64,000 nt of DNA from Bdellovibrionales bacterium (GCA_041690295.1 JAWLHR010000012.1:31931-95930); one strand, 5' to 3'. Positions 39,530 through 60,178 are shown, counted from the first letter of the stretch. Program-made: numbers and translations. The notes: a model not told the origin generated them from the sequence alone.

Positions 39530-39617
39530 TCCCCCTAAATAAAATGGAAAACCCTATCGAATGAGCCTATAAGCAATGATCAAGCCTGCTTAAACCGTGT
39601 TAAGATGGTATACCGAT

Positions 39618-39651
39618 GGCTCAAAGTTCAACACTTGTCGAAATTGGAGAC
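39618..39651. promoter_or_regulatory. Two tandem degenerate GTCTCA-N3-TGAGAC-like sites
   Basis: GGCTCAAAGTTCAAC (39618-39632) and GTCGAAATTGGAGAC (39637-39651). Confidence 0.3.
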
Positions 39652-39679
39652 AGTGAACGTGGGTGTTTTGAATGATCTT

Positions 39680-40870
39680 GTGAAAATTTTTGGAATCGTC
39701 GCGTGCATAATATTGACTCCAGCACACGCGTTCCTCACCGACTCTCAATATCATGTGGCCACGGAGCCGGAACATTTACTGCTCGATTCGTACACTCATT
39801 GGGATTCCGAAGCGGACAGTGATTTTTTTACCTATCAACGGCCGATTGAATGGGACGGGCTTTGGTATCGCGGAACACGGGTATTTGACTTGTCAGTGGG
39901 AAGCATTTCGAGCAAACAGTTCCTCTATTATCAACGGCTTAAACTTCACCATGGGCTTAGCGAATCTGTCGAGTTTCGCCTTCATTGGCTGCAGGAGCGG
40001 GATTTTGAAGAGGATCGCATCGCCATGCCTCTTGAACTTCGCTTTCGACTAAGTGAGCGCTGGTTTCTTTCAGTCCTTGGCCAACCTTCTTTATATAAAT
40101 CCGAGGATGATGTGGGATTCGCGGTGGCGTTTCGACCCTCCGATGAAAGAGAAATTCAGATCACCGGAATCTGGGGCGATTTTCAGCGAAACATCCGAAA
40201 CCTTGATACCGACGAATGGGGTCAGGCCCCGCAAGCATGGACGCTCACTTCAACCGACCTATCGTCCGAGGCCGGCCCTTCGGACTTTCGCCGCTTCGAG
40301 TATCATATTGAGCCGAAATCCATTCGCACGCAAAACGGTGTCCCTGTCACCTCGCTGAGTTATCAGTCACTTTACCTCAGTGGGTTCAAAACTCGAAAAA
40401 ACGGACACACATTGGGCTACCGGATCTTCGCGGATCGCGCTTTTCATGACGATCACGTAAATACACTTGTTCGGCTGCGCCATCGCTCCATCCTACAAGC
40501 GGAATACGGCTCGCGAATCGGACCCCATATGTTCCGCCCAGGATTCACCTTCACTTACCGCGAAAACCGCATCAATCAGCACCAGGAGATTCATCGTGCG
40601 GTTTTGCCTTACTTCTGGTTCGAGTTTCCCACCCGAAGTAAAAACTTCGGCATTTCCACTTGGTCCGTTGGTTATGACGCCACCGTCTTCGACCGGGATT
40701 CCACTTTGAAGTCGGATGATCGCGCGCTCGAGCACAGACTTAACTTAAAATCCTCGTTGAAGTTCTCGAAGGCCGGAGAACTGGCGTTTCTTTTCACCTT
40801 CGATCTTGACCGCTTCGGAAGCGGAGAAACCTGGGAAGGCGGCGCCGGACAGTTCCGGCTCGATTTCTAA
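39680..40870 (+). CDS. Putative outer-membrane beta-barrel protein
   Basis: GTG start gives signal peptide MKIFGIVACIILTPAHA (alternative start 39605); amphipathic strands; C-terminal QFRLDF. Confidence 0.65.
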   Translation: MKIFGIVACIILTPAHAFLTDSQYHVATEPEHLLLDSYTHWDSEADSDFFTYQRPIEWDGLWYRGTRVFDLSVGSISSKQFLYYQRLKLHHGLSESVEFRLHWLQERDFEEDRIAMPLELRFRLSERWFLSVLGQPSLYKSEDDVGFAVAFRPSDEREIQITGIWGDFQRNIRNLDTDEWGQAPQAWTLTSTDLSSEAGPSDFRRFEYHIEPKSIRTQNGVPVTSLSYQSLYLSGFKTRKNGHTLGYRIFADRAFHDDHVNTLVRLRHRSILQAEYGSRIGPHMFRPGFTFTYRENRINQHQEIHRAVLPYFWFEFPTRSKNFGISTWSVGYDATVFDRDSTLKSDDRALEHRLNLKSSLKFSKAGELAFLFTFDLDRFGSGETWEGGAGQFRLDF

Positions 40871-40885
40871 ATCTCATTTAGAGAC
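40871..40885. promoter_or_regulatory. GTCTCA-N3-TGAGAC-like site
   Basis: ATCTCATTTAGAGAC upstream of an FQNC lipoprotein gene. Confidence 0.4.
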
Positions 40886-41008
40886 AAACTGTTTTTCAGA
40901 TAGGCAGCCGTCGAACTTCTTTGCGCCGGCATCAACCTGACTGATTACCAACGGGCCCACGGCTTGCTTTATCAATATATTGGGACTGGGTGAATCAAGG
41001 GGTAAGAG

Positions 41009-43258: not shown

Positions 43259-44473
43259 TTAGTCTGCTATTAAGAACCAAAGATCATACATCAATTTGGC
43301 TTCACCGTTGGTGAAGTTAACGACCGACTTGTATCTCACTTCGTTGCCGTACCGGTCGATCTCACGATAGTTGGCATCATACTCGAGCTCCAGGGATTCG
43401 ATGCCCATGTAGGAGAGGGACACCAATTCTCCAGGGCCAGCGATACCGTTCAAGTCATGGTCGATCCACAAGCTCAGTTTGCGATAAACGGAGTCCTGAG
43501 CGTCGATGACACCATCCATGTTCTCGTCGTGCTTGGCGAGTGCCGCGAAGCCATGGGGTGCGAACTTTCCGTCGGGACCAAGCGTGTTATCACCAAAGAG
43601 TTCGTTAATGCCATGGACCTGGCCACGAGCATTCGGCAGAGCCAACATGGCCATGCTTGAGTCTTTGAACCAGCTGATTCGTTTTTTAGTATAAGGTACC
43701 GGCTTCGCATTCAATCCCTGGATGTCGAACAAAACGCCGTTCTCGGGAGCGGTCAACTGGAACCCGACGGTTGAATCACGTCGTAAGTCGACGAACAAGG
43801 GAGAAGATCGATTGTCACAATTCTCATAAACGCTCGAATCGGTCGCCAATCCGGAGCCATTGTCCGCGTAAAGGACGCTTTTTCCTCCCGCGAGCTCCTG
43901 TCCTTTTTCATTGAGAATTGACAGAATCATTTTACCGGAGAGCGACTTTCCGCAAAGGCTGGGAATATCGAAAGTACCAGCATTGATCATGGAGCGAATC
44001 TTGGCCGAATCCGAGCTTTGGCAAACTTTGACGCCGTCCTGAGTGAGCGAAAGGAGAAATGTGATTGAGGTGATCACCGGTGAAATATTTCTCCGAATCG
44101 TTTGCGCATCCGAGCAGGTTCTGACGATCCGGATGCGATTATTTTCAACTTGAACGTACTTACTGTCTTCGATGATTTGATTGATATCGATATTCAAATT
44201 GAGACCAGGGACATTGAGATTAGGAAAGTTAGGGACTTGGCCATTGGTAATCGCACCGGCACCAGGAAGTCCTAATAGCGGGTTTTGGCCTTGATTAATT
44301 TGGCCATTGGCATTCGAGCCACCGCCTTCCTGGTAAATCTGCCCCGAGGCGTTGTCACCGAAAACCGATGAAGACGCCAAAACCTGGGACCGATTGGTCC
44401 GAAACTGCGCTTTGCTGCACGCGCTCATGATGAATGCCGTTCCAATCATCGTAAGGATCGTTGCTTTGTTCAT
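43259..44473 (-). CDS. Lipoprotein with C-terminal FrpC self-processing-module-like Ca-binding domain (paralogue 2)
   Basis: MSAC lipobox; N/Q/G-rich linker; SPLFVDL…ELFGDNTLGPDGKFAPHGFAALAKHDENMDGVIDAQD. Confidence 0.8.
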   Translation of the reverse strand: MNKATILTMIGTAFIMSACSKAQFRTNRSQVLASSSVFGDNASGQIYQEGGGSNANGQINQGQNPLLGLPGAGAITNGQVPNFPNLNVPGLNLNIDINQIIEDSKYVQVENNRIRIVRTCSDAQTIRRNISPVITSITFLLSLTQDGVKVCQSSDSAKIRSMINAGTFDIPSLCGKSLSGKMILSILNEKGQELAGGKSVLYADNGSGLATDSSVYENCDNRSSPLFVDLRRDSTVGFQLTAPENGVLFDIQGLNAKPVPYTKKRISWFKDSSMAMLALPNARGQVHGINELFGDNTLGPDGKFAPHGFAALAKHDENMDGVIDAQDSVYRKLSLWIDHDLNGIAGPGELVSLSYMGIESLELEYDANYREIDRYGNEVRYKSVVNFTNGEAKLMYDLWFLIAD

Positions 44474-44611: not shown

Positions 44612-45331
44612 ATGCAAAACCTGGAGTATAAAACCGCAGACCATCAATTTCGCAGTCGCGACGAGTACGCCAATGCGAAATATGACATCACCTCCACGTG
44701 GCTCGCCCCATTCCTGGCGGCCGGTCGATTAACTGTGGCCAACGTGGGATGTGGGGGTGGAGAATATAACCACAGATTGGCGGCCTTCGAGGTCAATGTC
44801 GTTGCCTGTGAACCAGAACCAAAAGCCTTCGCGTTGGCCTATGAGTCCGCCAAAACATCTGACCGGATTCGAGTCGAAAACTACGGGCTTGAGAAATTCG
44901 CGGAAGAACATGGACCTTTTGATGTCTTGGTCATGCATGACGTGCTCGAACATATCGAAGACGAAGCCTATGCCGTGGATTGTGTGGCGAAGCTCATCAG
45001 ACCAGGCGGTCAAGCGGTGATCAGCGTACCCGCTTACCAATGGTTATTTGGTTATCATGACGTTCAACTCGGGCATTACCGTCGCTACACGCGAACCCGA
45101 CTCATGGATTTGTTTAAGCCAAGTTTCGAGATTTTAAATGCCCGTTACTACGGGTCCCTTTTCATTCCGGTAACCTTGATTTTTTCGAAGTGGATGCAAA
45201 AGCCCTATCCTATCGGCGAGGTCACGGCAAATAAATGGAAACAGCGGGTATTCAGAACAGCCTGCCAATTCCAAAGACTTTTACCGGAGCCGATCGGGAC
45301 CTCCGTACTGATCCATCTGCAAAAACGCTAG
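44612..45331 (+). CDS. Class I SAM-dependent methyltransferase
   Basis: NVGCGGG, DVLEHI, SVPAYQWLFGYHDVQLGHYRRY. Confidence 0.9.
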   Translation: MQNLEYKTADHQFRSRDEYANAKYDITSTWLAPFLAAGRLTVANVGCGGGEYNHRLAAFEVNVVACEPEPKAFALAYESAKTSDRIRVENYGLEKFAEEHGPFDVLVMHDVLEHIEDEAYAVDCVAKLIRPGGQAVISVPAYQWLFGYHDVQLGHYRRYTRTRLMDLFKPSFEILNARYYGSLFIPVTLIFSKWMQKPYPIGEVTANKWKQRVFRTACQFQRLLPEPIGTSVLIHLQKR

Positions 45332-46176
45332 GGCCTCGTACCACCGTCTTTTCGTACGACCCGGCGATAGGCAAAAAGATCTGAACGACTGATCTCTGGT
45401 AAACCAGTGAGATTTTCGTAATCATCCCACACAGCACTTAAGCAACGGCCGAACAAACCCTCGGATCTGGATGACATAAGGTATTCCACGAGTTTCGCTG
45501 CTTTTTCCGGCGATTCCCCGCCTTGCTCCCGCTGCTTAAGACTTTTCTCGTAAAAGGCGCGCCCCACTTTTTCAGGACCAGCCGTAAGCAAGTCATCCAA
45601 AAATTTAGTGTTCACCGCTCCCGGCGCAATGGAGTTCATGAAAATCCCATGCTCCGAAAGTTCCGCCGCGACGGTTTCGGTGAAACGCCAGATTCCGCCT
45701 TTGGCGGTCACATAGGGAGCAAAGTTCGGCATCGTGGCTTGCCCGCCGCCCGAGAATAGGACGATTCGGCCGCCCCCCGCCTGAGCCATCTTCCTAGCAA
45801 AAACATGGACCGTTCGAACCACTCCCGTAAGATTAATGTCTAGAGCGTCCATCCATTTTTCAATGTCACTCTCTAAAAAAGGACCAATTTCTCCATAGAC
45901 GCCAGCCGCCGCTACTAACCCATGAATGGCACCCAATTCGGACTCCACTGAGTCCGCGAAATTTTTGACCGACTCCAAACTTCGCACATCACAAGTCAAA
46001 GCAAGATGAGGACCGTTCCCTTGGGCATTGATCGATGCTAAAGCTCGATCCAAATCCGAGATAGTGCGTGCTCCTATGGCGACACGAGCACCCATTTTCG
46101 AAAGGTGTTCAGCGATGGCAAGCCCGATTCCCCGACCACCACCCGTAATCGCAATAACCTTATTCTTTAATTCCAC
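45328..46176 (-). CDS. SDR-family NAD(P)-dependent oxidoreductase
   Basis: TGGGRGIG, YVTAK (YxxxK), IAPG; start at 46176 (GTG) or 46188. Confidence 0.92.
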   Translation of the reverse strand: MELKNKVIAITGGGRGIGLAIAEHLSKMGARVAIGARTISDLDRALASINAQGNGPHLALTCDVRSLESVKNFADSVESELGAIHGLVAAAGVYGEIGPFLESDIEKWMDALDINLTGVVRTVHVFARKMAQAGGGRIVLFSGGGQATMPNFAPYVTAKGGIWRFTETVAAELSEHGIFMNSIAPGAVNTKFLDDLLTAGPEKVGRAFYEKSLKQREQGGESPEKAAKLVEYLMSSRSEGLFGRCLSAVWDDYENLTGLPEISRSDLFAYRRVVRKDGGTRP

Positions 46177-47390
46177 GTTGTCCCCCAAAGATCGGATTGT
46201 AGATTTACAACTTTGGCCATGGAACCGTTCTCATTCCATTTTAAATCTTTAAACTGCGGCCGGGCCGTCACGATAACATATAGCCGACAATCATGCGGCA
46301 CCTCTCTAAGGCTCGCGCAATGTTGCAAACACTCGGTGAGCCCTTCAAGCGGCTTACCATTCATGACGGGATCAAACCCATAAACTTCAAAATCGTGCGC
46401 CTTTAATCGTCGCGCTAGTCGCTCGGCCGGAGATCGTCTTACTGTATCCACATCCGGCTTGTAACTGTATCCGGCGAGAAGAACCTTTCTCGGCGATAAA
46501 TTTAAATCCAGGATTTTACTTACAATGACGTCATCAACATTTTCGTTAACCATAAGGACGGCGTTAACCAGCGGTGTAGGGACATCCAGCTGTTGGCCAA
46601 GTTTTTGAATCACCCTCAAATCCCGAGGTAAGGTGCCACCGGCAAATCCGAGGCCTGGCTTCACGTAAGCCAAGGGACCAATCCGTTTATCCGCCTTAAG
46701 AGCCTCAGCGACAAATCCATGATCCACTCCGAATTTCTCGCCGATTCTCGCGACTTCATTGGCGAAAGATATGCTCATCGCCAAGAACGTGTTTGTCGCA
46801 TGTTTCACCATTTCCGCCGTCGCCAGGTTTGTTCTATAAAACTGCGTCTCAAATCGTCCCATCAGAGCCTGAATTCGATCACCGTATGCGGGTTCATCAG
46901 CCCCAATGACCGTCCGATCGGCACGAAAAAATGTTTCAATGCCCTGACCAAGTCTTAAATTCTCAGGAATGTACACCACCGGTGTCCCGTAACGTTGATT
47001 GAGTTCACGACAAAACCCCAGCGGAACCTGACTGCTCACCGCTAAAATCTCAGGCCTTTCGCCTGTGGTAAATCCCTCATCCAATATTTCAAAGAGTACT
47101 TGCGTGTTTGGCCGATCCTGATCGTCCACCGGTGTGTCGGCGGCAAGCCACCAAACTGGCGCTCGCCAACCCGTCCAATCCCCAGTGTGAAATAATAATT
47201 CTCTGTTCGACCCAAGCTCATTGAGTTCCTCAAACCCAGGTTCAACGATCGGGCACGGCGGAAGCCCCGGTTGAAGTTCCGACCCTCTCCGCAGTTTCAA
47301 AACAGTACGGACCTCACCTTTACTGAAACTCACGGCCGTACAAAAAGCCAAATGCCAGTCCCCGATCACCGCCAGCTGAAACTCAGTCAC
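46167..47390 (-). CDS. UDP-glucose/GDP-mannose dehydrogenase-family protein with degenerate active site (LmbL-like)
   Basis: PENLRLG, EMVKHATN, YKPDVDTVRRS retained; GFAGGT replaces GFGGSC. Confidence 0.85.
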   Translation of the reverse strand: MTEFQLAVIGDWHLAFCTAVSFSKGEVRTVLKLRRGSELQPGLPPCPIVEPGFEELNELGSNRELLFHTGDWTGWRAPVWWLAADTPVDDQDRPNTQVLFEILDEGFTTGERPEILAVSSQVPLGFCRELNQRYGTPVVYIPENLRLGQGIETFFRADRTVIGADEPAYGDRIQALMGRFETQFYRTNLATAEMVKHATNTFLAMSISFANEVARIGEKFGVDHGFVAEALKADKRIGPLAYVKPGLGFAGGTLPRDLRVIQKLGQQLDVPTPLVNAVLMVNENVDDVIVSKILDLNLSPRKVLLAGYSYKPDVDTVRRSPAERLARRLKAHDFEVYGFDPVMNGKPLEGLTECLQHCASLREVPHDCRLYVIVTARPQFKDLKWNENGSMAKVVNLQSDLWGTTWN

Positions 47391-48363
47391 GAAGCACCAC
47401 CTGCGCGCCTAGGCGATCAAAATTAAAGGGCACGTCAACAAGACCAGCTTCGCGCATTGTTTTTCGCAATCGACGTTTATCGTCAGCCAGAAACATCAAA
47501 AATCCGCCTCCACCGGCGCCAATAAGCTTTCCGCCAAGGGCACCGTTTTTCATGGCCAAATCGTACCACTCGTCAATTTTTCCGTTGCTCATGGATTTCG
47601 AGCGTGTTCGTTTATGTTCCCAATGAACGTTCATTAACCGGCCGAACTCATCAATCCGGCCGGTTTCAAGCGCCTTTCCAATCTCGATTCCCAATTCTTT
47701 GGTGAAATGGAGATTGTCGATCATTTTGGAATCATCTTTCTTAGTGGCCGAATCCTGTTCCTGTAAAATGTTGGATGCGCTTCGTGAGTAGCCGGTGAAA
47801 AACAAAAGAAGGTGCTCTTCCAGATCAATGCGATCCGCCTCCGCCATTTGCATGGGTTCAGCACTGACCTTTCCGTCCATGGAAATCGTAAAACGGGTTA
47901 ATCCGCCCACCGCTGAAATGTACTGATCCTGTTTTCCGACCGGAGAATTTAACCGGTTAATTTCTATCTCACAGGCTTTTTCCGCCAGACTCATAGCATC
48001 GTGTCTGACTCCGGAATAGGTATAAAGCGCCTTCAATAAGGCCACGGTGAATGTACCTGAAGATCCCAGTCCAGTTCCCGCCGGAATGTCCGCGAAACTT
48101 GAAATTTCAATTCCGTTGCCGATGTCCACTTCGCGCAAGCATTCGCGAACCAGTGGATGTTTAATTTCGTCAATTTTTAGAACGCGCTCCATTTCCGAGT
48201 ATTTGATGATGAAATCGGGCACGAAAATCTTATGTAGCGAAATGTAAATGTACTTATTGATGGCGGCACTTATGAAAGTCGCGCCGAACTGTGAATAATA
48301 GGAAGGCAGGTCCGTACCACCACCACCGATGGAAATTCGTAAAGGTGCTTTTACGATTAACAT
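47383..48363 (-). CDS. GHMP sugar-phosphate kinase (HddA/LmbP-like)
   Basis: PLRISIGGGGTD, PAGTGLGSSG, GKQDQY, GGKLIGAGGGGF. Confidence 0.93.
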   Translation of the reverse strand: MLIVKAPLRISIGGGGTDLPSYYSQFGATFISAAINKYIYISLHKIFVPDFIIKYSEMERVLKIDEIKHPLVRECLREVDIGNGIEISSFADIPAGTGLGSSGTFTVALLKALYTYSGVRHDAMSLAEKACEIEINRLNSPVGKQDQYISAVGGLTRFTISMDGKVSAEPMQMAEADRIDLEEHLLLFFTGYSRSASNILQEQDSATKKDDSKMIDNLHFTKELGIEIGKALETGRIDEFGRLMNVHWEHKRTRSKSMSNGKIDEWYDLAMKNGALGGKLIGAGGGGFLMFLADDKRRLRKTMREAGLVDVPFNFDRLGAQVVLRD

Positions 48364-49349
48364 GGAACCTCCTGACCGGATTGGCGATAGGTTTCATAAA
48401 CCACCCGCATCGCCTCATAGGCGTCACTTAACGACGCTTCGGGCTTCCGTTGTAACTGAACATCCTTTTGAAACTCCGCCCACTCAAAAGCCCAGGAATC
48501 ATCCGGCCCCGGATACTCCCATGTTTGAGATTCAGGCGGTCCCATCTGCGGTAACATTTTATGGTAGGTCAATCGCTCAACGCCATAGCTGCCACCAAGT
48601 CCACTCACATCCAACTTCGCTTTTTTAAAGTAAATTTCGAAGCTGAACATGTTCTTCCACTCCGTACAGCTCACCTGTAAGAATGCGGCCTGGTCCTCTT
48701 TGTTACGTAATAGCAGAAAACCGTTATCCTCAACCGGCATATCCCAGAAATAACGGTGCGACCAACCTTGTACCTTATCTATTTCCCCTAAGAATTGTCG
48801 GGAGAGATCGATCATATGAACGCCCTGATCAATCAACTCCCCGCCGCCGGAGAGTTCCGGTTTCGCCCGCCACTCATTCTCCATGCCCAATCGCCCACCA
48901 TGTCCATAGCGCCCGCGAATAAACATTAAAGGTCCAAACTCTTCCGTTTTCTGTAGCTCACGAATCTTTCTAAATGCCGGATGGTAACGATGGTTGAATC
49001 CCACACGCACAATGGCTCTCTTCTGTTCCGCAAGATCAAGTACCGATTTTAATTCTCCTGGATTTCGCGCTGCCGGTTTCTCCACTAGAACAGCAAGGCC
49101 ACACTCGATCGCCGCTTTCGTAATGGTTGGGAGCAGGTGATGGGGCGTGGCCACGATCACCGCGTTCAATCCCGGATGATTTAGAGCCTGGCGCCAATCT
49201 TCATAAATTTGCGCCGTAGTGTGGGCCTCCGAATTCAATGTTTCCGCGCGCTTTCGGTCCTGATCACAAATGGCGACCAGCTGGCTATCCCCTAAAGCCT
49301 TAGCCCGTTTTTTTCCTATCAATCCGCAACCAATGATAGCGACGTTCAT
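48357..49349 (-). CDS. Gfo/Idh/MocA oxidoreductase (LmbZ-like)
   Basis: GCGLIG, VEKP, GFNHRY, GGGELIDQGVH. Confidence 0.92.
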   Translation of the reverse strand: MNVAIIGCGLIGKKRAKALGDSQLVAICDQDRKRAETLNSEAHTTAQIYEDWRQALNHPGLNAVIVATPHHLLPTITKAAIECGLAVLVEKPAARNPGELKSVLDLAEQKRAIVRVGFNHRYHPAFRKIRELQKTEEFGPLMFIRGRYGHGGRLGMENEWRAKPELSGGGELIDQGVHMIDLSRQFLGEIDKVQGWSHRYFWDMPVEDNGFLLLRNKEDQAAFLQVSCTEWKNMFSFEIYFKKAKLDVSGLGGSYGVERLTYHKMLPQMGPPESQTWEYPGPDDSWAFEWAEFQKDVQLQRKPEASLSDAYEAMRVVYETYRQSGQEVPC

Positions 49350-50296
49350 TCGAGCAACCACTCATTCGACAATAAATATTTGACGGTATCTTTTACGCTC
49401 TCCGAAATGTCATAGCGGGGCCTATAGCCGTGCTCCGTGATTTTTTTGATATCAAGATGGATATGCGGTGAATCTCCAACCCACCCACGTTTTCCACCCG
49501 CGAACCGTAACTCCGGCATAAGCTCCAGGGTCTCACAAATCCAGCCAATGGAATCACGCACGGTACAAGATGCATCCAGACCCAAATTAAAAATGTTCAC
49601 CGCTTCACGCCCGTTCTGAATTCCCGTCAAAACGCCAGCCACGCAGTCATGAACATGCATATAGGATTTTCTTTGATATCCGTCGCCTAGAACATCCAGA
49701 TATTCGGGATGCTTACGAAGCTGTTTCACAAAATCAATCACATGACCATGGGAGTAACGAGGGCCGAGGCAGGAAACAAATCGGAAGATATACGACTGGA
49801 TCCCAAAACCATGGGAGTAAGCCGAAATCATGCCTTCGGCGGCAAGCTTCGATGCTCCATAAAGTGAAGTTTGAATGGGAAATGGTGCTGTTTCTGGAGT
49901 CGGAAAAATTTCGGGCTCGCCATAAATGGAGCCCGTGGAGGCAAATGCGATTTTTTTGACCCCATTTAAACGACACGCTTCAAGCACCTGCCAGGTCACA
50001 ATGGTGTTTTGCTCAAGATCTCGGCGAGGATGCTGAGTTCCGAATCGCACATCCGCATTGGCAGACATATGAAGGACACAGTCCACACCTTTAAAATGGG
50101 GGATAATCGACTCACCTTCCGTAAAAAGATCGCATTTGATGAATTCGAACCGAGGATTCGATTGCGCTTGTCGCAGGTTCTCTTCAAAACCCGTGGAGAG
50201 ATTATCGAGAACACGAACATCATGGCCTTCCTGCAGTAAAGCATCAACCAGATGGCTACCTATAAAACCCGCGCCGCCCGTCACTAAATATCTCAT
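49346..50296 (-). CDS. NAD-dependent NDP-sugar epimerase (extended SDR; LmbM/GalE-like)
   Basis: TGGAGFIGSH, STGSIYG, YGASK. Confidence 0.93.
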   Translation of the reverse strand: MRYLVTGGAGFIGSHLVDALLQEGHDVRVLDNLSTGFEENLRQAQSNPRFEFIKCDLFTEGESIIPHFKGVDCVLHMSANADVRFGTQHPRRDLEQNTIVTWQVLEACRLNGVKKIAFASTGSIYGEPEIFPTPETAPFPIQTSLYGASKLAAEGMISAYSHGFGIQSYIFRFVSCLGPRYSHGHVIDFVKQLRKHPEYLDVLGDGYQRKSYMHVHDCVAGVLTGIQNGREAVNIFNLGLDASCTVRDSIGWICETLELMPELRFAGGKRGWVGDSPHIHLDIKKITEHGYRPRYDISESVKDTVKYLLSNEWLLE

Positions 50297-50316
50297 TTCA
50301 AACTCCAAGTTTGGGC

Positions 50317-50345
50317 ATGGTAAGGAGGGACCTAATGAGTGTCAA
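50317..50345 (-). promoter_or_regulatory. Sigma70-type promoter of the leftward sugar-modification operon
   Basis: Minus strand TTGACA-17 nt-TACCAT, then GGAG RBS before ATG at 50296. Confidence 0.65.
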
Positions 50346-50408
50346 TTTCGCTTAGCGTTATTACTCGCTCATGACAGGCGGTGGTTCTCGAGATTAGAGT
50401 CCTCATCC

Positions 50409-51338
50409 ATGTATTTATCTGTTGTAGTGCCCGTATATAAGGAAGCACGTAACATCGAGGAATTTTTACGACGACTGGTACCGATCATTGAACCGGTCAC
50501 CTCGAAATTTGAAGTGATCTTTGCCATGGATCCCTCGCCTGATGATACGGAATTGGTGTTGGAGAAAGCCAATTCGTCGGACCCAAGAGTTCGTTACCTT
50601 AAATTCTCTAAACGCGTCGGACAACCCATGGCCACAATTGCCGGCATGGAACATTCTAAAGGCGACGCCGTAGTTGTCATGGACGTCGACTTACAAGATC
50701 CACCTGAACTCATCTTGGAGATGCTTGATAAATACAAGCAAGGCTACGACGTGGTTTACGCCCAAAGACTGAGTCGTAAAGGCGAGACTCTGATGAAGCG
50801 CTTGGTCTCTTGGTTGGGTTATAAATTCATCAATCGGATTAGCGATGTGGATATTCCGCCGAATACGGGCGATTTTCGGCTGATGTCTCGAAGGGTGGTT
50901 GATCATGTGGTCTCACTCAAAGAGTCCCACGGCTTTTTACGAGGACTCGTGGCGTTGGTTGGTTTTAATCAAACCGCTGTGCAATTTGAGCGTCCCGCTC
51001 GATTTTCAGGAAAAGGTAATTATAACCGTTGGTTCGGCTCTCTCGTCATCGGCATGAACGGTGTGGTTTGCTTTTCAAATTTCCTATTAAAGCTTTCCTC
51101 CACCTTCGGCTTTATCGTCGCGTTCGGTGCGTTTTTAATGGCAATTATTTACTTTCTCGCCAAACTTCGCGGAGTTCCCTTCCCGCTGGGCAATCCCACA
51201 ATTGTGATTCTGGTTTTATTTCTTGGCGGCGTACAGTTGATGAGCATAGGCATTTTAGGGGAATACATCGGTCGTATTTATGATGAAGTCAAAGAACGAC
51301 CGAAATACATCCTCGATAAAAAAGTGGGTTTTGACTGA
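50409..51338 (+). CDS. GT2 polyprenyl-phosphate glycosyltransferase (GtrB/ArnC-like)
   Basis: SVVVPVY, MDVDLQDPPE, GDFRLMSR, two C-terminal TM helices, GEYIGRIYDEVKERP. Confidence 0.93.
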   Translation: MYLSVVVPVYKEARNIEEFLRRLVPIIEPVTSKFEVIFAMDPSPDDTELVLEKANSSDPRVRYLKFSKRVGQPMATIAGMEHSKGDAVVVMDVDLQDPPELILEMLDKYKQGYDVVYAQRLSRKGETLMKRLVSWLGYKFINRISDVDIPPNTGDFRLMSRRVVDHVVSLKESHGFLRGLVALVGFNQTAVQFERPARFSGKGNYNRWFGSLVIGMNGVVCFSNFLLKLSSTFGFIVAFGAFLMAIIYFLAKLRGVPFPLGNPTIVILVLFLGGVQLMSIGILGEYIGRIYDEVKERPKYILDKKVGFD

Positions 51339-52051
51339 TGCTTCAGTGCGTGGTTCTGGCCGGCGGTCTCGGTACGCGAATGGGCCCGCTCACTCGCCAT
51401 CGCCCTAAAGCTCTCATCCCTATCCTGGGAAAGCCCTTCCTCCAATATCAAATGGAATGGCTGGCCCGTAGCGGAGTCACACATCTGACGTTTTCCATTG
51501 GCCATCTTGGCGAACAAATCGAAGCGTTCGTGAAGTCTAATCCGATCCCGGAACTGACGGTTGATTTCGTTTATGAGGGAAAAGAACTCCTCGGCACCGG
51601 CGGGGCACTAAGGCATGCTTTCGACCAAGGCCGACTTCATGAGGCGTTTGTTTTAGTTTATGGCGACTCTTATTTGCCGCTCAACGTGAGCCAGGTGTTT
51701 AAACATTTTCAAAATCAAAATCAACCGGCCCTGATGACTGTTTTTAAGAACAATGGTCGGTTCGACCGAAGCAACTGCCATTTTGAAGATGGCCAGGTTG
51801 AGTTCTATAGCAAGACTAAGACTTATTCAAAACCACTTATCTATATCGATTATGGCCTCAGCGTCATAAAGCGGCACCTTATAGAAGATAGGTTTCAGCC
51901 GGGCGAAAAAGCGGACCTGGCTACGCTCTTTGAGCATCTGAGCCAAGAAGGCCAGTTGGCGGGATACGAAGTCTTTGAACGTTTTTATGAAATCGGCTCT
52001 CCCCAGGGCCTTGAGGAATTCACTGCTTTCGCTAAGTGTCATTTGACCTGA
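51338..52051 (+). CDS. Sugar-1-phosphate nucleotidyltransferase (HddC/LmbO-like)
   Basis: LAGGLGTRM…PKAL, GTGGAL, YGDSY, FYEIGS. Confidence 0.92.
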   Translation: MLQCVVLAGGLGTRMGPLTRHRPKALIPILGKPFLQYQMEWLARSGVTHLTFSIGHLGEQIEAFVKSNPIPELTVDFVYEGKELLGTGGALRHAFDQGRLHEAFVLVYGDSYLPLNVSQVFKHFQNQNQPALMTVFKNNGRFDRSNCHFEDGQVEFYSKTKTYSKPLIYIDYGLSVIKRHLIEDRFQPGEKADLATLFEHLSQEGQLAGYEVFERFYEIGSPQGLEEFTAFAKCHLT

Positions 52052-52095
52052 ATTCGGGCCATTGTTAGCTTAGCGCCCAATCTAAGGAGTACCCC

Positions 52096-52815
52096 GTGAA
52101 AGAATTTACGTCGCGTTTGAAAGTGGAGCTATTCGCCGATGGCGCTGACCTTAAAGAAATGATTCAGTGCTATAAACAAGGTTGGGTCAAAGGTTTCACT
52201 ACCAATCCCACGCTCATGGCAAAGGCGGGAATTCGGGATTACGAAAATTTCGCGCGTGAAGTTCTACAATCCATCACGGACCTCCCCGTATCGTTCGAAG
52301 TTTTTTCTGATGAATTCAATGAAATGGAAGAGCAGGCTCTAAAAATCGCAAGTCTGGGCCCAAATGCCAACGTGAAAATCCCAATCACTAACACACGAGG
52401 CGAATCGAGCCTGCCATTGATCGATCGATTGCTTGATCGTGGTTTGATGGTGAACGTGACGGCGATTTTGACTGAATCCCAGATTCGAGGTCTTCGGGAG
52501 ATCGTAAAACCTCAGCACAAGGTGATCGTCTCCATATTTGCCGGTCGGATCGCGGATACGGGACTTGATCCCATGCCTATTATGCGCGATGCCGTCGACC
52601 TTTATAAAGACGTTCCCGGAGCGCGAATTCTCTGGGCCTCTCCTCGCGAGGTTTTGAACATTTACCAAGCCGATCAGACGGGAACCCATATCATCACGGT
52701 TCCGCCGTCATTGCTGTCCAAACTGCCCTTGATGGGAAAAGATCTGGAACAGTACTCACTTGAAACGGTTAAAATGTTCCGCGACGACGCGGTTAAATCG
52801 GGGTTTACGCTTTGA
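52096..52815 (+). CDS. Transaldolase-family protein (LmbR-like position in the cluster)
   Basis: ADGAD, GFTTNPTL, VKIP (Schiff-base Lys), NVT, SIFAGRIAD. Confidence 0.93.
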   Translation: MKEFTSRLKVELFADGADLKEMIQCYKQGWVKGFTTNPTLMAKAGIRDYENFAREVLQSITDLPVSFEVFSDEFNEMEEQALKIASLGPNANVKIPITNTRGESSLPLIDRLLDRGLMVNVTAILTESQIRGLREIVKPQHKVIVSIFAGRIADTGLDPMPIMRDAVDLYKDVPGARILWASPREVLNIYQADQTGTHIITVPPSLLSKLPLMGKDLEQYSLETVKMFRDDAVKSGFTL

Positions 52816-53381
52816 TTATTCTCGATCGCGACGGGGTCATCAATCGTTTGGTGATTGATCCCGAACAAGGGACTGTCAATTCACCCCTTCACCCCTCGCA
52901 AGTCGAGCTTATACCGGGATCGCTGGAAGCTATTCGCAACCTGACAAAGGCTGGATTTAAGATCGCGATCGCTACCAACCAGCCGGCAGCAGCCAAGGGT
53001 ACGACAACGAAGGCCAATCTTGACGACGTTCACGCCTCAATTCTTGAGGCCATCGAATCCGCCGGGGGAAAAATTTCTTCTTCGCATATCTGCTTTCATC
53101 GCGCGGAAGACCATTGCCGCTGCCGAAAGCCGGCGACTGGCCTTTTAGAAGACGCATTAAAAGACGTTTCGCTAGAGCAACGCCGGAAATCTTGGATGGT
53201 GGGAGACGGTGTTACGGATATCGAAGCGGGAACACGGCTTGAGCTGAACACCGCCTATTTAGGTCCGAAACGCTGTGACCATTGCAAGTGTCTTGAAGAG
53301 CGAAATTTACACCCCAAAATCTTTGCCAATTTAAAGGCATTTTCTGACTGGTTATGCGAAAGGCGTGAGGAGTACCTATGA
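52812..53381 (+). CDS. HAD sugar-bisphosphate phosphatase (GmhB/LmbK-like)
   Basis: LDRDGVIN, TNQ, CFH…CRCRKP, MVGD. Confidence 0.92.
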   Translation: MIILDRDGVINRLVIDPEQGTVNSPLHPSQVELIPGSLEAIRNLTKAGFKIAIATNQPAAAKGTTTKANLDDVHASILEAIESAGGKISSSHICFHRAEDHCRCRKPATGLLEDALKDVSLEQRRKSWMVGDGVTDIEAGTRLELNTAYLGPKRCDHCKCLEERNLHPKIFANLKAFSDWLCERREEYL

Positions 53382-53977
53382 GTTTTACCGAGAAATTCTT
53401 GAATGAAAGCATGGAAGTGATCAAGTCGCTTCCGGTTGGAGAGATCGAAGCCATGGCTAACGGCTTGGCGAAACTCCGGGACATCGGTGGCCGTCTTTTT
53501 ATCTTGGGTGTCGGTGGATCGGCCGGCCACGCCAGTCATGCGGTCAACGACTTTAGAAAAATCTGTGGCATCGAGGCTTACACCCCCACGGATAATGTTT
53601 CTGAACTCACCGCCCGGGTGAATGACGAGGGCTGGGACACATCCTTTGTTGAGTGGCTTAAAGTTTCACGGCTCAACGAGCTGGACGCGGTTTTGGTATT
53701 TTCCGTCGGCGGCGGAAATCGCGAGAAAAATATTTCAGTTAACCTGGTGCGAGCGTTGGAATTCGCCAAGGAACGCAAAGCCGCTGTTTACGGAATTGTC
53801 GGCAAAGACGGCGGATTTACCAAACAAACCGCGACCGCCTGTGTCGTCATCCCACCGCTTTTTAATGACCACATCACCCCTCATACCGAAGGACTTTGCG
53901 CGGTCGTATGGCATCTTTTGGTCAGTCATCCCGCATTAAAAATCAAAGCCACGAAATGGGAATCAACCGTTGTTTGA
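53378..53977 (+). CDS. SIS-domain phosphosugar isomerase (GmhA/LmbN-like)
   Basis: GVGGSAGHASH, TARVND, FSVGGG, TPHTEG. Confidence 0.9.
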   Translation: MSFTEKFLNESMEVIKSLPVGEIEAMANGLAKLRDIGGRLFILGVGGSAGHASHAVNDFRKICGIEAYTPTDNVSELTARVNDEGWDTSFVEWLKVSRLNELDAVLVFSVGGGNREKNISVNLVRALEFAKERKAAVYGIVGKDGGFTKQTATACVVIPPLFNDHITPHTEGLCAVVWHLLVSHPALKIKATKWESTVV

Positions 53978-55613
53978 ACTAAAGAGCTTTTTTAAGCGCA
54001 ACTGGCAACGAGGTCTCAATCTTATTTTGGGCCTCATGCTGCTCTTTCAGTTTGCGGGGTATGTTTCTGTTTTCAGCGAGAATATCGACCCCCGCTCGAT
54101 CCTATCTTCTCGTGACGCTGACGCGTCCCACATTGTGGGCACGGCCGCGAAAACCCGGTGGTATAAGGACAACGGCGAGTCGGCCTATGGCCCGTTTTAT
54201 TATCGGGTCATTCATACTTTTGCATTCTTTGTAGGACGAGAGTTCGCTCGTGATGGATCAGCCGTCGAAAAAAATGAAATGGCCCATCACTTGGCGGCCA
54301 TGACTTTGTCGCTTGTTTCCATCTACGGAATGGCCTTTTTACTTTCCTCGTTGTTGATCGGGAATTTGGCCGGGCGCCTGGCGTTTTCGATGGTCGTTAC
54401 CGCACTCTTCCTGAGCCATCCAGTTTGGGCTAGTTTTGTTTTTCGCGCCCATCCTGATCATTTTTTCGCACTGGTTGTTCTTGCGGCGTTTCTGGCGACA
54501 GCTAAGGCCATTACGGAGAAAGAAAACGAGCTCGCGTTTAAGCTGGCCGCGCTATTGTGGGGCGCGGCCGGAATGGTCAAACTCTCCTTCGTAATATTTC
54601 TTCCGGCTTTAATGTTCTTATGGATGCCGCCCATTCGAAAGGATACTTTCCACAAGACCGTACGCTTTTATCTTTGGATGTTGCCAAGCTACCTGGCTCT
54701 GGGCTTTCCCCAAAGTTTTAATTTTCCGCGTTCGATTCGATTTCTGATCAACCAGAGTCAATACAGCCTCCCCGCCACAGCTGCGTCTGTGTCGAAGTGG
54801 ATTTCGGAACTCGGTTCCCAACTCTTATGGGTTGGGATCCTCGTACTCTCAATCGCCCTGGTTACAAAAAAGCCCGCCAATCGGCACGAAACGATCCGAT
54901 TGGCTGCCGTGATCCTAATCCCCCTCATCGTTCTGCTGAAGCAGAACTCCGAATATCAAACCGATTATTATCTTTTTCCAATAGTTGCAATGATACTTGC
55001 CTTGGCCGCTCAAACCGTCCGAGGACCCTACTTCCTTCGGGCTGAGAAATTCCAAAATCTGGTTTTGGCGGGTATTTCTCTTTTTACTTTTTTAAGTTTC
55101 GGATTTGTGCCTCTTACCATGGAGAGGGAAATGACCCCAACGCTCATTTGTCGTGAGGAGGCCCATAAGATCTATACTGAAGTTCACAAAATGGCCGATG
55201 AAGGAAAAATCGTCGTTGTCGATCCCTATGTGCCTTATGACCGTGGACGAGGCAGAGATCAAATTAAAGCCAGCTGGAGTAATCACTGGGATCGCGTGAG
55301 AGCGGAACAAGCGGACGCACTGGTGATCAACACGGACTATGCGGGCCGATTTTTGACCTCAGGCGAGCCCGCCCATGGAGTGAAAGTCGATGTGCCGGAG
55401 TGGCAAAAAGTACGAATATTTTATTCATCGTTAAAAAATGAAATCGCCCAGGACACAAATGGGCAAGTCTGGACAAAAGCAATGACAGTCAAATGTCCAT
55501 GGGAGATTTGGATTAAGGACGGCCAATCGCAGCTGCCAAGTGACCGCGCAAGAATGGAAAATTCAGATACGGATATAAGTGGCCAATCCGCCGTCCAAGC
55601 GGCGGAAAAATAG
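53970..55613 (+). CDS. Polytopic membrane protein, putative GT-C glycosyltransferase
   Basis: Acidic DADA loop after TM1, YGP, HPDH, K in a mid TM, about 10 TM helices plus a soluble C-terminal domain. Confidence 0.6.
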   Translation: MFELKSFFKRNWQRGLNLILGLMLLFQFAGYVSVFSENIDPRSILSSRDADASHIVGTAAKTRWYKDNGESAYGPFYYRVIHTFAFFVGREFARDGSAVEKNEMAHHLAAMTLSLVSIYGMAFLLSSLLIGNLAGRLAFSMVVTALFLSHPVWASFVFRAHPDHFFALVVLAAFLATAKAITEKENELAFKLAALLWGAAGMVKLSFVIFLPALMFLWMPPIRKDTFHKTVRFYLWMLPSYLALGFPQSFNFPRSIRFLINQSQYSLPATAASVSKWISELGSQLLWVGILVLSIALVTKKPANRHETIRLAAVILIPLIVLLKQNSEYQTDYYLFPIVAMILALAAQTVRGPYFLRAEKFQNLVLAGISLFTFLSFGFVPLTMEREMTPTLICREEAHKIYTEVHKMADEGKIVVVDPYVPYDRGRGRDQIKASWSNHWDRVRAEQADALVINTDYAGRFLTSGEPAHGVKVDVPEWQKVRIFYSSLKNEIAQDTNGQVWTKAMTVKCPWEIWIKDGQSQLPSDRARMENSDTDISGQSAVQAAEK

Positions 55614-56178
55614 TGCAGCGGCGAATTTCGCAATATCCTTCAGGAAAAAGCGCCCGAATTTCAGCCTTTCCGATGCCTCTTACGTCAGGATTACGTGGGT
55701 TGTCGTAAGCCAGATCATACCACAAAAATAGACCGCCCGGCTTTAGCTTGCGCCAAAGTATCTTCGCCAATTCAGCGCGAAATTTGAAATCAAGAACCGA
55801 ACTGAAAAGCATCGACTGAAATATGACATCAAAACCGTCCCATGGAATCTCACGCGCATCTCCGTGATGAACATTTTCGCTAGGAAGCAACTCTTTCAGA
55901 CGATCACTGCGATCTTCGAGAAGCTCATTGGCAAAAAGATTCGAGCGGCGAATTCCCGACCGCAGAAATCCTGGCAGATTCGCACCTTCTCCCGCTCCCA
56001 CTTCCAGAAATCGAACCTTCGTCAAATCAGAAAACCGTTTATGCAAAAAATGATCAAAATAGTATTCCCGATCAAGCCTTGAGTAATGTTGGAATAATGA
56101 AAACCGCGGGTAAAGACGATCCAAGCCCTTCTCTTTCCGCCGCTGATAGCGTTCTTTAATTAATTCGACTTCGTTCAT
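55513..56178 (-). CDS. Class I SAM-dependent methyltransferase
   Basis: LEVGAGEG, GDA, LKPGG, NPRNPDVRG. Confidence 0.88.
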   Translation of the reverse strand: MNEVELIKERYQRRKEKGLDRLYPRFSLFQHYSRLDREYYFDHFLHKRFSDLTKVRFLEVGAGEGANLPGFLRSGIRRSNLFANELLEDRSDRLKELLPSENVHHGDAREIPWDGFDVIFQSMLFSSVLDFKFRAELAKILWRKLKPGGLFLWYDLAYDNPRNPDVRGIGKAEIRALFPEGYCEIRRCTIFPPLGRRIGHLYPYLNFPFLRGHLAAAIGRP

Positions 56179-57347
56179 CGACGTCCTCGACTGTTCACCA
56201 AAACAAGAGCCCAAATAAACACAACAAAATGATTCACTTCTCCGTCAAAGAAATTAGCTTCGGTCAGACCCCCAAGATGAACGTAGCCTTGAGCGAGCAA
56301 TAACGGCCAACCCCAAGCTGATTTATCCCTAATCCGCCAAGCGGCACGCATAAAATAAAATGAAATTAAAATATAAATTATTGCCGCGAAAACCCCAGCC
56401 CCCGCGGCCCATTGTAAAATCACATTATGGGCATGAGAGGTGAATTTCTCATCAATCCCAAGACGTTGATAATAGTCCGGCAGAAGACGATCACCTTGAA
56501 AAAGACCAGCTCCGAGAAACGGTTTGTCCATCACAATATGTCCATACGAGCGCCAAAGGTGGGTGCGGACCGCGCTACTGTGGTCCATTTCCAAAGTGGC
56601 CATGCGCCCGACTTTGGTGGCCACAGCAGGATTGAGATTCATTAGACCGTATACAAAAACGGCCACTCCAAGGATATAAGGGATCAGCCAACCGCGATGG
56701 TTAAATAAAAAATAGATTCCACCGCAAATGAATAGTGAAATCCATGCTCCACGCGACATGGCCGAAACCGTAGCGAGGCCTCCCAGCACAAGGATTACAA
56801 CGGCAATTTTCTTACCTATGCCTCTAAATCCCGCCAAAGCGGCCGCGAATGTGGATTGACCGATTACATATGCGAACGTCAATGACATGGAAAAAAAGCC
56901 AGTGGTTTTAAAAAAGCCACCCTCCTGGGGATTCACCACACCTTTGCTCGCCCGGATAAAATCAACACCCGTAAAAAACTGTAAAATGGCATAAAGACTG
57001 GTAAGCGCAAGTACCACGCACCAAATCGTTAACAAATTTTGCTCGAACTTCTTGGACCAGGCTAATCCCAAAGCCCAATATAGCCCGTAGAGAACGAGAA
57101 CAAATCGCATGAATCCAAATTGATCCATCAAAGGCTTGAGTGACGGATTTATAACAAGGCTTAACAGCACAATGAGCGATAGTGCTAAAAACCAGGAGCC
57201 AAGGGGAAACTCAAATCTCTCACGAATCTTAACCTTGTGTACAACAGTTACCGCTAAAGTTAACCATGAAATCACCTCCATCGCTGCAATGGATGTATGG
57301 AGTGCCAAAACGTGTAGTAACAACAAGACCGAAACAAACGCCGTCAT
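56175..57347 (-). CDS. O-antigen ligase / O-oligosaccharyltransferase family (Wzy_C) protein
   Basis: Multiple TM helices; SRGAW, R..LW, GAG, HAHN. Confidence 0.88.
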   Translation of the reverse strand: MTAFVSVLLLLHVLALHTSIAAMEVISWLTLAVTVVHKVKIRERFEFPLGSWFLALSLIVLLSLVINPSLKPLMDQFGFMRFVLVLYGLYWALGLAWSKKFEQNLLTIWCVVLALTSLYAILQFFTGVDFIRASKGVVNPQEGGFFKTTGFFSMSLTFAYVIGQSTFAAALAGFRGIGKKIAVVILVLGGLATVSAMSRGAWISLFICGGIYFLFNHRGWLIPYILGVAVFVYGLMNLNPAVATKVGRMATLEMDHSSAVRTHLWRSYGHIVMDKPFLGAGLFQGDRLLPDYYQRLGIDEKFTSHAHNVILQWAAGAGVFAAIIYILISFYFMRAAWRIRDKSAWGWPLLLAQGYVHLGGLTEANFFDGEVNHFVVFIWALVLVNSRGRR

Positions 57348-57985
57348 AGGGAAAAAAGATCCCCTGGTGGTTTCATGTCCAATATCAAAGGCACATTGAT
57401 CTTGATCCCAACAATGCGTAGGAGTGTCGCGAGTATCATAAACAAATCAGACCATAAGGATCTTTGCTCCGCATATTCTCGATTGATCCGGATCTTTTCC
57501 GGCATAATACGCCCAATGTAAAAGTCTTCAGGTGACGAGGACCGTGCCAAAAGCGCGGACTCATCAAAAAACACGAAGGATGCCGGATCAGTGATTCCCG
57601 GTTTAAGTTCTAATACCTTCCGCTGTTCAGGTGTATATTTTTGAACGAAGTACGGAAGTTCAGGGCGTGGCCCCACGAGTGACATTTCTCCTTTGAACAC
57701 GTTCCATAACTGAGGAAATTCGTCCAACTTCAATTTACGAAGCCAACGACCAATACGTGTGATTCGCTCATCACTCCCAACGGTCAGGAGAGCTCCCTTT
57801 TCTGATCTCATCGTTCGAAACTTCCACATTTTAAAGTCTCGCCCATTCTGACCCACCCGAACCTGGCCGAAAAACACAGGGCCAAAATCATCAATTTTAA
57901 TAAGAAGAGCAATGAAAGCGAAGACCGGCCAAAGGATAAGCAGGCCCAAAAACGCAATCGTCACATCAAACAGCCGTTTGGTCAT
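57344..57985 (-). CDS. Bacterial sugar transferase (monotopic phosphoglycosyl transferase, PglC-like)
   Basis: KRLFD, KFRTM, LDEFPQLWNV, MSLVGPRPE, KPGIT. Confidence 0.95.
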   Translation of the reverse strand: MTKRLFDVTIAFLGLLILWPVFAFIALLIKIDDFGPVFFGQVRVGQNGRDFKMWKFRTMRSEKGALLTVGSDERITRIGRWLRKLKLDEFPQLWNVFKGEMSLVGPRPELPYFVQKYTPEQRKVLELKPGITDPASFVFFDESALLARSSSPEDFYIGRIMPEKIRINREYAEQRSLWSDLFMILATLLRIVGIKINVPLILDMKPPGDLFSL

Positions 57986-60177: not shown

Positions 60178-60178
60178 A

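Follow-up and report, generated by a model that had tools for sequence, protein, structure and literature searches.

The eight-carbon aldose of the lincosamide antibiotics arises through a pathway in which the transaldolase LmbR makes octulose-8-phosphate from ribose-5-phosphate, as a Trypanosoma transaldolase likewise does (PMC5854111), and in which guanosine diphosphate (GDP)-octose is converted to GDP-lincosamide by LmbM, LmbL, CcbZ and CcbS (PMC12945683). The functions of the lincosamide enzymes have been tabulated in PMC4351081 and PMC12945683. Separate studies of the O-antigen locus cbu0673-cbu0683 of Coxiella burnetii described a phosphoheptose isomerase (cbu0674), a pair of epimerases (cbu0676/7) and a protein fusing adenylyltransferase and kinase (cbu0678), and indicated that genes of that locus are needed for phase I lipopolysaccharide (LPS) (PMC3539893, PMC13552124, PMC5843353, PMC5423948).

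Here we describe a locus from a Bdellovibrionales bacterium, found in a stretch of 64,000 nucleotides (GCA_041690295.1, JAWLHR010000012.1:31931-95930; referred to as the window) whose genome, G000, is 99.89% complete. Two divergent operons, together termed the cassette, encode a transaldolase (R), an isomerase (N), a kinase (P), a phosphatase (K), a nucleotidyltransferase (O), a nucleoside diphosphate (NDP)-sugar epimerase (M), a Gfo/Idh/MocA oxidoreductase (Z), a homologue of uridine diphosphate (UDP)-glucose dehydrogenase (L) and a short-chain dehydrogenase/reductase (SDR). Judging from the families and trees of these proteins, we consider the chances evenly balanced that this intact pathway builds an NDP-octose, which would be placed on a surface glycan by way of a lipid carrier. 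New in this work are a direct comparison with authentic Ccb proteins, the finding that the match is a mosaic, a predicted exit route through glycosyltransferases of the GT2 and GT-C kinds, and a missing GmhA.

Organization of the locus and reference proteins

All nine genes are intact open reading frames (ORFs) whose neighbors overlap or abut. The positions and the families that an earlier note on this DNA had assigned to them in two divergent operons were borne out by the ORF map and by Pfam and NCBIfam models; its 3' limit was drawn too short, the second operon continuing into a GT-C-type gene at 53970-55613. The transaldolase R (52096-52815, plus strand) scores 325 bits on TIGR02134, above the cut-off of 282, and is an extra copy beside a housekeeping TalC-type enzyme at G000:C3:57781. 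The GHMP sugar kinase P, presumably an anomeric kinase, lies at 47383-48363 on the minus strand, and on the plus strand are the sugar-1-phosphate nucleotidyltransferase O (51338-52051; Pfam), for which GTP is assumed by analogy, and the GmhB-type HAD phosphatase K (52812-53381). N, P, K and O all fall far below the NCBIfam cut-offs for GmhA, HddA, GmhB and HddC, respectively: P reaches 163 bits on the HddA model (cut-off 600), O 72 on HddC (300), and K 54-120 on the GmhB models. CcbP is also below the HddA cut-off, and the HddA and HddC cut-offs are strict, an actinomycete HddA-type kinase encoded beside gmhA having scored 265.

Scans with published lmbN primers did not find the lmb locus of Streptomyces lincolnensis, yielding four chance matches, and because no lmb locus was located the Ccb proteins, which are 59-74% identical to their Lmb counterparts (PMC4351081, Table 2), were used as a stand-in. 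Sampling of a streptomycete genus gave a lincosamide-type isomerase in 6 of 401 genomes. A ccb cluster, for the lincosamide celesticetin, was recognized in genome G645, where ORFs of 484, 202, 427, 416, 323 and 232 residues match the lengths of CcbIH, N, Z, F, P and O (Table DS1-1 of PMC4351081) and where the Z protein has a C-terminal carrier domain identical to that of CcbZ in PDB 9DKR; a second ccb cluster is present in G775. Matches on an Embleya plasmid (H68) and on Streptomyces plasmids (H9, H155) were examined and set aside as not being lincosamide-type clusters. When the Ccb enzymes were compared with G000, the best match lay inside the locus for six of eight (M, N, Z, P, O and R).

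Isomerase and tailoring enzymes

The cassette is tied to the lincosamide pathway through its isomerase and three tailoring enzymes, which the earlier note had placed in the families of LmbN, LmbL, LmbM and LmbZ, and which indeed group with CcbN, CcbL, CcbM and CcbZ and not with GmhA or Cys-bearing dehydrogenases. N, a SIS ketose/aldose isomerase (53378-53977, plus strand), forms one clade with CcbN (support 100/99) in a careful tree of 43 rows, for which 10 of about 75 cassette rows were kept, and a quick tree of 85 rows agrees; a topology forcing N together with 10 GmhA rows was rejected (approximately unbiased test, p-AU 0.013). N scores 39 bits on the gmhA model against a cut-off of 209, and CcbN is also below it. 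Both proteins have an altered phosphate loop, SV[GH]GG with an insertion, versus the STSGN of GmhA, a loop that in the GmhA family binds phosphate, and both have Pro at Escherichia coli position 169. N also has Asp and Glu in place of Glu65 and Gln172 of GmhA; this pair was rejected as an octose marker, being present in 21 of 40 other GmhA-like rows.

L (46167-47390, minus strand; Pfam), an orthologue of CcbL, retains the three-domain architecture of UDP-glucose dehydrogenase and its active-site Lys, Asn, Asp and Glu, and has Thr in place of the catalytic Cys (GGTLPRD versus GSCFPKD). The Cys is absent from all 27 aligned cassette L rows, being replaced by Thr or, in one sub-branch, by Asn. 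In UDP-glucose dehydrogenase the Cys is needed only for the double oxidation of a primary C6 alcohol, and its loss, on sequence, fits a substrate of at least seven carbons. The nucleotide-binding loop has also changed, from GxGxxG to G[LD]WHL[GA], with loss of the second Gly, and a Thr has become Gln; the Trp now in that loop would fit a shift from dehydrogenase to eliminase. Five motifs are common to L and CcbL and missing from all four canonical dehydrogenases shown: G[LD]WHL for GxGYVG, SQ[VL] (SQVP for STVP), PENLRLG for PEFLR.G, KH[AG]TN (KHATN for KYAAN) and G[GSA]TL.RD for G.CFPKD. In the L tree, 23 cassette rows cluster with three ccb- or lmb-like rows in a single clade that leaves out the 12 Cys-bearing dehydrogenases (Shimodaira-Hasegawa-like approximate likelihood ratio test, SH-aLRT, 99), with CcbL inside the cassette clade (inner branch 94, not starred). 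A separate canonical UDP-glucose dehydrogenase is retained in G000, and a BLAST search with CcbL scores it (137 bits) level with L (133 bits).

The epimerase M (49346-50308, minus strand, with its likely start at ATG 50296; Pfam) belongs to a clade of 24 rows that includes CcbM (SH-aLRT 99) and is 36% identical to that protein. For the oxidoreductase Z (48357-49361, minus strand; Pfam), 17 other Gfo/Idh/MocA rows split off (SH-aLRT 99) from the side that holds Z and CcbZ, which are 35% identical and have no specific sister tie. Near-copies and weak matches were omitted from both trees, and in both the row nearest to Ccb is an actinomycete cassette, L132 (97 and 98).

The SDR (45328-46188, minus strand; adh_short, 155 bits; TGGGRGIG and YVTAK motifs) is a classical member of its family and the predicted reductase of a keto-sugar intermediate. 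A DegT aminotransferase at 57982-59142, about 4 kb from the cassette, inside the window and unweighed in the earlier note, is the best CcbS match in the genome (41%). It travels with Bac_transf and Wzy genes, also in the cassette-free genome G006, and no homologue at 40% or more was found in 18 L-bearing loci outside the genus; the gene was not accepted as a CcbS counterpart. Because a homologue of the SDR is present in 16 of 21 L-bearing loci, and DegT is not a feature of such loci outside the genus, the SDR appears the better guess for the enzyme acting in place of LmbS.

Distribution and linkage of the cassette

Of 41 genomes searched, five encode an R that passes the TIGR02134 cut-off, namely G000 and 4 of the 17 others of its genus, and since all five also carry a TalC-type enzyme, R is an additional copy in each. 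The four relatives have matching pairs of operons, including the GT2 and GT-C genes, at 60-86% identity; in one of them, G003, the cassette is without L and the kinase abuts the SDR. An equivalent enzyme set is found on plasmid 3 of Lawsonia intracellularis, on a megaplasmid of Rhizobium jaguaris and in metagenome loci, and among actinomycetes the cassette occurs in 4 of 401 genomes at E < 1e-40. Its presence in 4 of the 17 other genus genomes and in such distant taxa argues that the cassette is not a chance assembly. A search of phages with R returned solely TalC-like and staphylococcal matches.

Of 301 genomes sampled from the phylum, 37 score above 300 bits with the N profile, after which the scores fall to 116 or less. 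Linkage was counted in 20 fetched loci of these 37, within at most 20 kb around N: R is near N in 19 of the 20, O in 10, K and Z in nine each, P and M in eight each, and L, the SDR and GT2 in three each. R also adjoins N in all 15 metagenome loci of at least 15 kb. These counts around N establish R and N as a fixed core and L, Z, M and the SDR as an optional tailoring set. None of 20 loci with GmhA-type genes has R beside them, and of 12 loci with a SIS gene of an intermediate class one does; that R accompanies N in 19 of 20 loci but GmhA in none of 20 points to a special ketose phosphate. A second GmhA-family match occurs in 33 of the 37 N-bearing phylum genomes, a lower bound given that the profile missed the GmhA of G009, and N is therefore mostly an addition across the phylum. 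The scanned neighbors are mostly glycan genes, encoding GT2 and GT4 glycosyltransferases, Wzy, WecG, acyltransferases and an ABC permease.

Several cassettes depart from this pattern. In the actinomycete locus L132 (G385:C38:1-20000), R, N, P and O are of the window type and L, M and Z are nearest to Ccb; its surroundings, with luxCDE-like, luciferase-like, FkbM and class IV aminotransferase genes, are an exception to the glycan context, and the locus is possibly a link between window-type cassettes and lincosamide clusters. In loci L197-L200, SIS proteins of the CcbN clade are accompanied by a kinase of the cassette type, an SDR and either Z or K, and no transaldolase lies within about 8 kb. 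In a cassette copy at L224:11838-15022 (G1085), L and the SDR each appear split in two frames, through decay or an assembly error. N lies within longer proteins in P0171, P0173, P0174, P0177, L222, L223 and L228, the last three being N-K fusions. A variant order, N-K-R-epimerase-epimerase-HldE-like fusion (adenylyltransferase first)-Z-L, is present at L027:8751-17433 and in L095, L098 and L234; the L proteins of such loci form a separate sub-branch (GNLERD), and a split transketolase is encoded close by.

A predicted lipid-carrier exit

The second operon begins with a GT2 gene (ATG 50409 to 51338, plus strand) of the PgfS/ArnC kind, whose product scores 241 bits on the PgfS model and 144 on the ArnC model, each under cut-off, and has C-terminal membrane helices (hydrophobic segments near residues 210-285); it is a predicted polyprenyl-phosphate glycosyltransferase. 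The operon ends with the gene at 53970-55613 (plus strand) for a 547-residue membrane protein of the GT-C fold, a predicted periplasmic transferase using a polyprenyl-phosphate sugar. That protein itself has no Pfam match; its Atlas neighbors are PMT_2 proteins, and one of its six homologues (P0324) carries PF13231. A model of moderate confidence, built from seven sequences, had a mean predicted local distance difference test score (pLDDT) of 65.5, the single-sequence fold being unusable at 42.5, and Foldseek with the former, at E up to 0.001, gave GT-C enzymes (STT3, DPY19, ALG12, ArnT, AftA) in all 15 matches listed of 16, with TM-scores of 0.3-0.4. Both genes lie within the operon in all five cassette genomes of the genus, and the pair provides a predicted route for the loading of a polyprenyl carrier that the earlier note had postulated. 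No GtrA- or ArnEF-type flippase was seen among ORFs of at least 100 residues in a search confined to the locus.

A gene for an S-adenosylmethionine (SAM) methyltransferase (44612-45331, plus strand; Pfam) accompanies the cassette in the genus and possibly encodes a sugar O-methylase. It adjoins the SDR gene in three of the four relatives (66-69% identity), and homologues stand beside GT2 genes in L130, L224 and L227.

The absence of antibiotic assembly genes, noted earlier for the window, extends to the genome, where LmbT-like, condensation and mycothiol-type genes are also lacking: a search of the whole of G000 with query ORFs of at least 200 residues from the ccb region (L154 and L155), and with an LmbT-like protein, found no counterparts of CcbT, D, E or F, and CcbC matched only acyl-CoA-ligase-like genes elsewhere in the genome, at 25-27%.

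Proposed pathway and alternative readings

The following scheme reads each step from the family and tree position of the enzyme concerned, the genes, families, trees, linkage and lack of GmhA being what was observed. R would transfer a three-carbon unit from fructose-6-phosphate or sedoheptulose-7-phosphate to ribose-5-phosphate, giving octulose-8-phosphate, which N would isomerize to octose-8-phosphate and which P, K and O would then carry to an NDP-octose (GDP being assumed). M would epimerize this product. The lincosamide octose reportedly undergoes a 6,8-dehydration with the roles divided between L and Z; on the model of what CcbZ and LmbL are said to do, Z would oxidize C6 and L, without the Cys and without the second Gly of its NAD loop, would remove the C8 hydroxyl. 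The SDR would reduce the ketone at the point where lincosamides use CcbS, yielding a neutral 8-deoxy-octose, and the L-less variant of G003 would yield a non-deoxy epimer. The finished sugar would be attached by GT2 to undecaprenyl phosphate, from which the GT-C protein would transfer it to a periplasmic acceptor (LPS, an O-glycan or protein). N likely also accepts sedoheptulose-7-phosphate and so fills the place in the LPS-core route that is left vacant by the lack of GmhA.

A number of observations weigh against an octose product, the first of which concern the entry enzymes. The transaldolase had been taken to be of the LmbR type, and R proved not to be an orthologue of CcbR: CcbR fits TIGR00875 (143 bits) better than TIGR02134 (104 bits), branches separately from the TIGR02134 group as well as from TalC, and carries Gln and Leu at the positions of the ordinary transaldolase Glu and Phe that R retains. 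The residues of R are Lys94, Glu68 and Phe148, corresponding to the Schiff-base Lys, acid-base Glu and Phe of transaldolases, with Glu and Phe as in the Thermoplasma enzyme, and proteins of the TIGR02134 type are not confined to cassettes (L017, L020). P falls in a clade of its own that takes in neither CcbP nor the HddA-type kinases of actinomycetes, and in pairwise comparison it scores up to 260 bits with other GHMP kinases against 155 with CcbP. O is 31-32% identical to CcbO without a special tie in pairwise scores, and K likewise has no special tie to CcbK, whose best match in G000 is the housekeeping GmhB; both results are uninformative. The proposed equation of kinase, nucleotidyltransferase and phosphatase with LmbP, LmbO and LmbK thus found no special tie in scores or, for P, in a tree, and the phylogenetic comparison with Lmb and Gmh enzymes suggested in the earlier note came out on the Ccb side for N, L, M and Z and not for R and P, with O and K scored pairwise. 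Because R and P do not group with CcbR and CcbP, the correspondence is a mosaic, at the level of sequence: the lincosamide pathway and the cassette share an isomerase and a tailoring trio, and not demonstrably an entry enzyme or a kinase. Identities between window proteins and Ccb enzymes are low throughout (28-36%), the branch leading to cassette N is long (2.18), L is optional and is dispensed with altogether in G003, and our literature search, in which subscription carbohydrate journals were thinly covered, brought up no bacterial surface glycan containing a straight-chain octose; nor did it yield a description of the cassette.

The last of these points concerns GmhA. N is the sole GmhA-family protein of G000, in which the ADP-heptose route is otherwise present: GmhB and six GT9 genes are there, and an HldE-type kinase, an adenylyltransferase and an HldD epimerase each exceed the cut-off of their model. 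The same holds in G003, G005 and G007, where N is again the only GmhA-family gene beside an HldE-type kinase, an adenylyltransferase and HldD over cut-off, with 6-7 GT9 genes across the four. For this reason N probably turns over sedoheptulose-7-phosphate as well, and its presumed seven-carbon activity fits either a heptose cassette or an isomerase of dual chain length. The GT9 genes are by themselves a weak sign that the cassette feeds the core, and were set aside as such, five of five cassette-free genomes carrying 5-7 of them. In the genus as a whole, a GmhA-type gene of at least 184 bits is present in 12 of 18 genomes, six being over the cut-off; G015 has N plus a GmhA-type gene, G016 only an intermediate SIS protein, and G008 (87% complete) none. 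In G001, G004 and G010, gmhA sits between metK and lepA, which in G000 (G000:C9:74648-77600) are 4 bases apart, and the slot is also without gmhA in five of five further genomes tested; the gene may have been gained in those three genomes, and no loss is claimed. Most members of the genus seem to depend on SIS isomerases encoded in glycan loci that vary. In cassette-bearing members, the cassette isomerase could also feed the LPS core, which at the extreme could carry octose instead of heptose.

The main rival to an octose is a modified heptose, an explanation that we regard as serious though less likely, in which R boosts sedoheptulose-7-phosphate, N is a divergent GmhA, and P, K and O lead to an NDP-manno-heptose whose C4 or C6 is then inverted or deoxygenated by M, Z, L and the SDR, the lincosamide branch having later adapted the enzymes to eight carbons. 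Such a product would suit the position of N as the only GmhA-family protein in four of the five cassette genomes of the genus, all of which keep the downstream ADP-heptose enzymes, as well as the ordinary transaldolase residues of R and the finding that P, O and K resemble heptose-type enzymes at least as much as they resemble Ccb; moreover, the secondary alcohol at C6 that would account for the loss of Cys from L is also present in heptoses. It is harder to reconcile with the pairing of R with N in preference to GmhA-type genes, with the second GmhA-family match that makes N usually an addition in the phylum, and with the failure of N on the gmhA model and its rejection from the GmhA clade; in addition, the only characterized orthologues of L, M and Z act on GDP-octose (PMC12945683). 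Some other higher sugar, such as a nonose (from a three-carbon unit and a hexose-6-phosphate), an octose of different configuration from arabinose- or xylose-5-phosphate, or a branched or ring-closed derivative, is improbable. R is unlike CcbR, and its acceptor need not be ribose-5-phosphate, and the tailoring genes vary around the R-N core, as with the HldE-like fusion and split transketolase of L027 and L095; nothing positive, however, speaks for nine carbons, and the N, L, M and Z trees adjoin eight-carbon enzymes.

Incorporation of the sugar into a secreted product (a metabolite or an antibiotic, like that of Streptomyces), with the neighboring glycan genes being incidental, is very improbable. 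In its favor are the luxCDE-like, FkbM and aminotransferase genes around L132, whose L, M and Z are the nearest rows to Ccb; against it stand the placement of GT2 and GT-C inside the operon throughout the genus, the lack of LmbT-like and condensation genes in the genome, and the occurrence of other copies among GT2/GT4, Wzy, WecG or ABC-transporter genes. An NDP-octose bound for a surface glycan is thus the reading that we carry forward. A broader proposal, somewhat more tentative, is that a straight-chain (8-deoxy)octose is a common building block of surface glycans across many phyla, and that the lincosamides took N, L, M and Z from the cassette family and their transaldolase and kinase from elsewhere.

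Neighboring genes and related loci

The two operons are separated by about 110 bases (50297-50408), presumably a shared promoter region, judging by the ORF ends and by a divergent layout that is kept in all four relatives. The G+C content of the locus is 49.3%, versus 52.5% for the genome. Downstream, positions 55513-59142 encode a methyltransferase, a Wzy_C/O-antigen-ligase-like protein, Bac_transf and the DegT aminotransferase, a block that is the conserved frame of the glycan locus and is found in the genus both with and without the cassette; further on, at 59233-63841, a gene resembling methylenetetrahydrofolate reductase is followed by one resembling B12-dependent methionine synthase (1220 residues), both named from sequence appearance. 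Upstream, a paralogous lipoprotein-like pair (38504-39529 and 43259-44473) with a common C-terminal domain (GING/HGINELFGDNT...D.NGIAGPGEL) flanks a 253-residue lipoprotein and a tetratricopeptide repeat/helix-turn-helix protein. In G012 (C52, L290), a different glycan locus, with two GmhA-like genes and an HldE-like kinase, adjoins orthologues of the window genes at about 37300-40900, and the chromosomal slot therefore appears to swap glycan loci.

In the streptomycete genomes G272 and G404, sugar genes in the order R-S-O-P-Z-N-M-L-K adjoin a gene for an LmbT-like transferase (E 1e-47 to 8ILA, named LmbT in PMC12945683). Lincosamide sugar genes accompanied by an LmbT-like transferase and an ABC exporter were seen at G272:C17:150000-169999 (L159) and also in G404, G621 and G556, and adenylation-domain, carrier and condensation genes were not seen in the 40 kb fetched from G272 and G404; clusters of this kind perhaps make an undescribed octose-based metabolite. 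From its ORF starts, the G272 cluster presumably abuts a gene set of the 3-amino-5-hydroxybenzoic acid (AHBA) type.

Comparison with known systems

If an octose is indeed the product, an eight-carbon aldose known from a single antibiotic family would turn out to be widespread on cell surfaces, given that the core is present in 37 of 301 phylum genomes; there would be a concrete answer to the origin of the lincosamide sugar enzymes; soluble, non-streptomycete NDP-octose enzymes would be at hand; and O-antigen loci annotated as a heptose pathway with a stray transaldolase would gain a new reading. If the product is instead a heptose, the route would still be an undescribed one that includes a dehydrogenase homologue lacking the Cys and an isomerase acting in the place of GmhA.

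Among loci already described, Coxiella cbu0673-0681 resembles the L027/L095 variant, in which an HldE-like fusion takes the place of P and O, the comparison being by annotation; cbu0675 would correspond to a TIGR02134 transaldolase and cbu0679/0680 to Z- and L-like proteins. With the ArnC/ArnT, GtrB/GtrC and PgfS-type lipid-carrier systems, the cassette has in common a GT2 with C-terminal helices and a GT-C transferase, and it differs from them in that its predicted donor is a higher sugar and in that no GtrA-type flippase gene was seen in the locus. L has the three-domain form of UDP-glucose 6-dehydrogenase but not its catalytic Cys or its GxGxxG. The GDP-D-glycero-alpha-D-manno-heptose route (GmhA, HddA, GmhB, HddC) follows the same isomerase-kinase-phosphatase-nucleotidyltransferase logic, but has no place for a linked transaldolase or for L, Z, M and the SDR.

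The closest comparison remains the lincosamide GDP-octose pathway (LmbR/N/P/K/O and LmbM/L/Z/S), with which the cassette has eight enzyme families in common. The two differ in the transaldolase subfamily, in a CcbP that does not group with P, and in the linked aminotransferase that lincosamide clusters have where the cassette has an SDR; lincosamide clusters further contain LmbT and adenylation-domain, carrier, condensation and mycothiol-type genes, whereas the cassette contains GT2 and GT-C. To the extent that its genes indicate, the locus would operate in the manner of the lincosamide sugar pathway, here supplying a lipid-carrier glycosylation system, and it belongs neither to the lincosamide clusters nor to the textbook GDP-heptose route.

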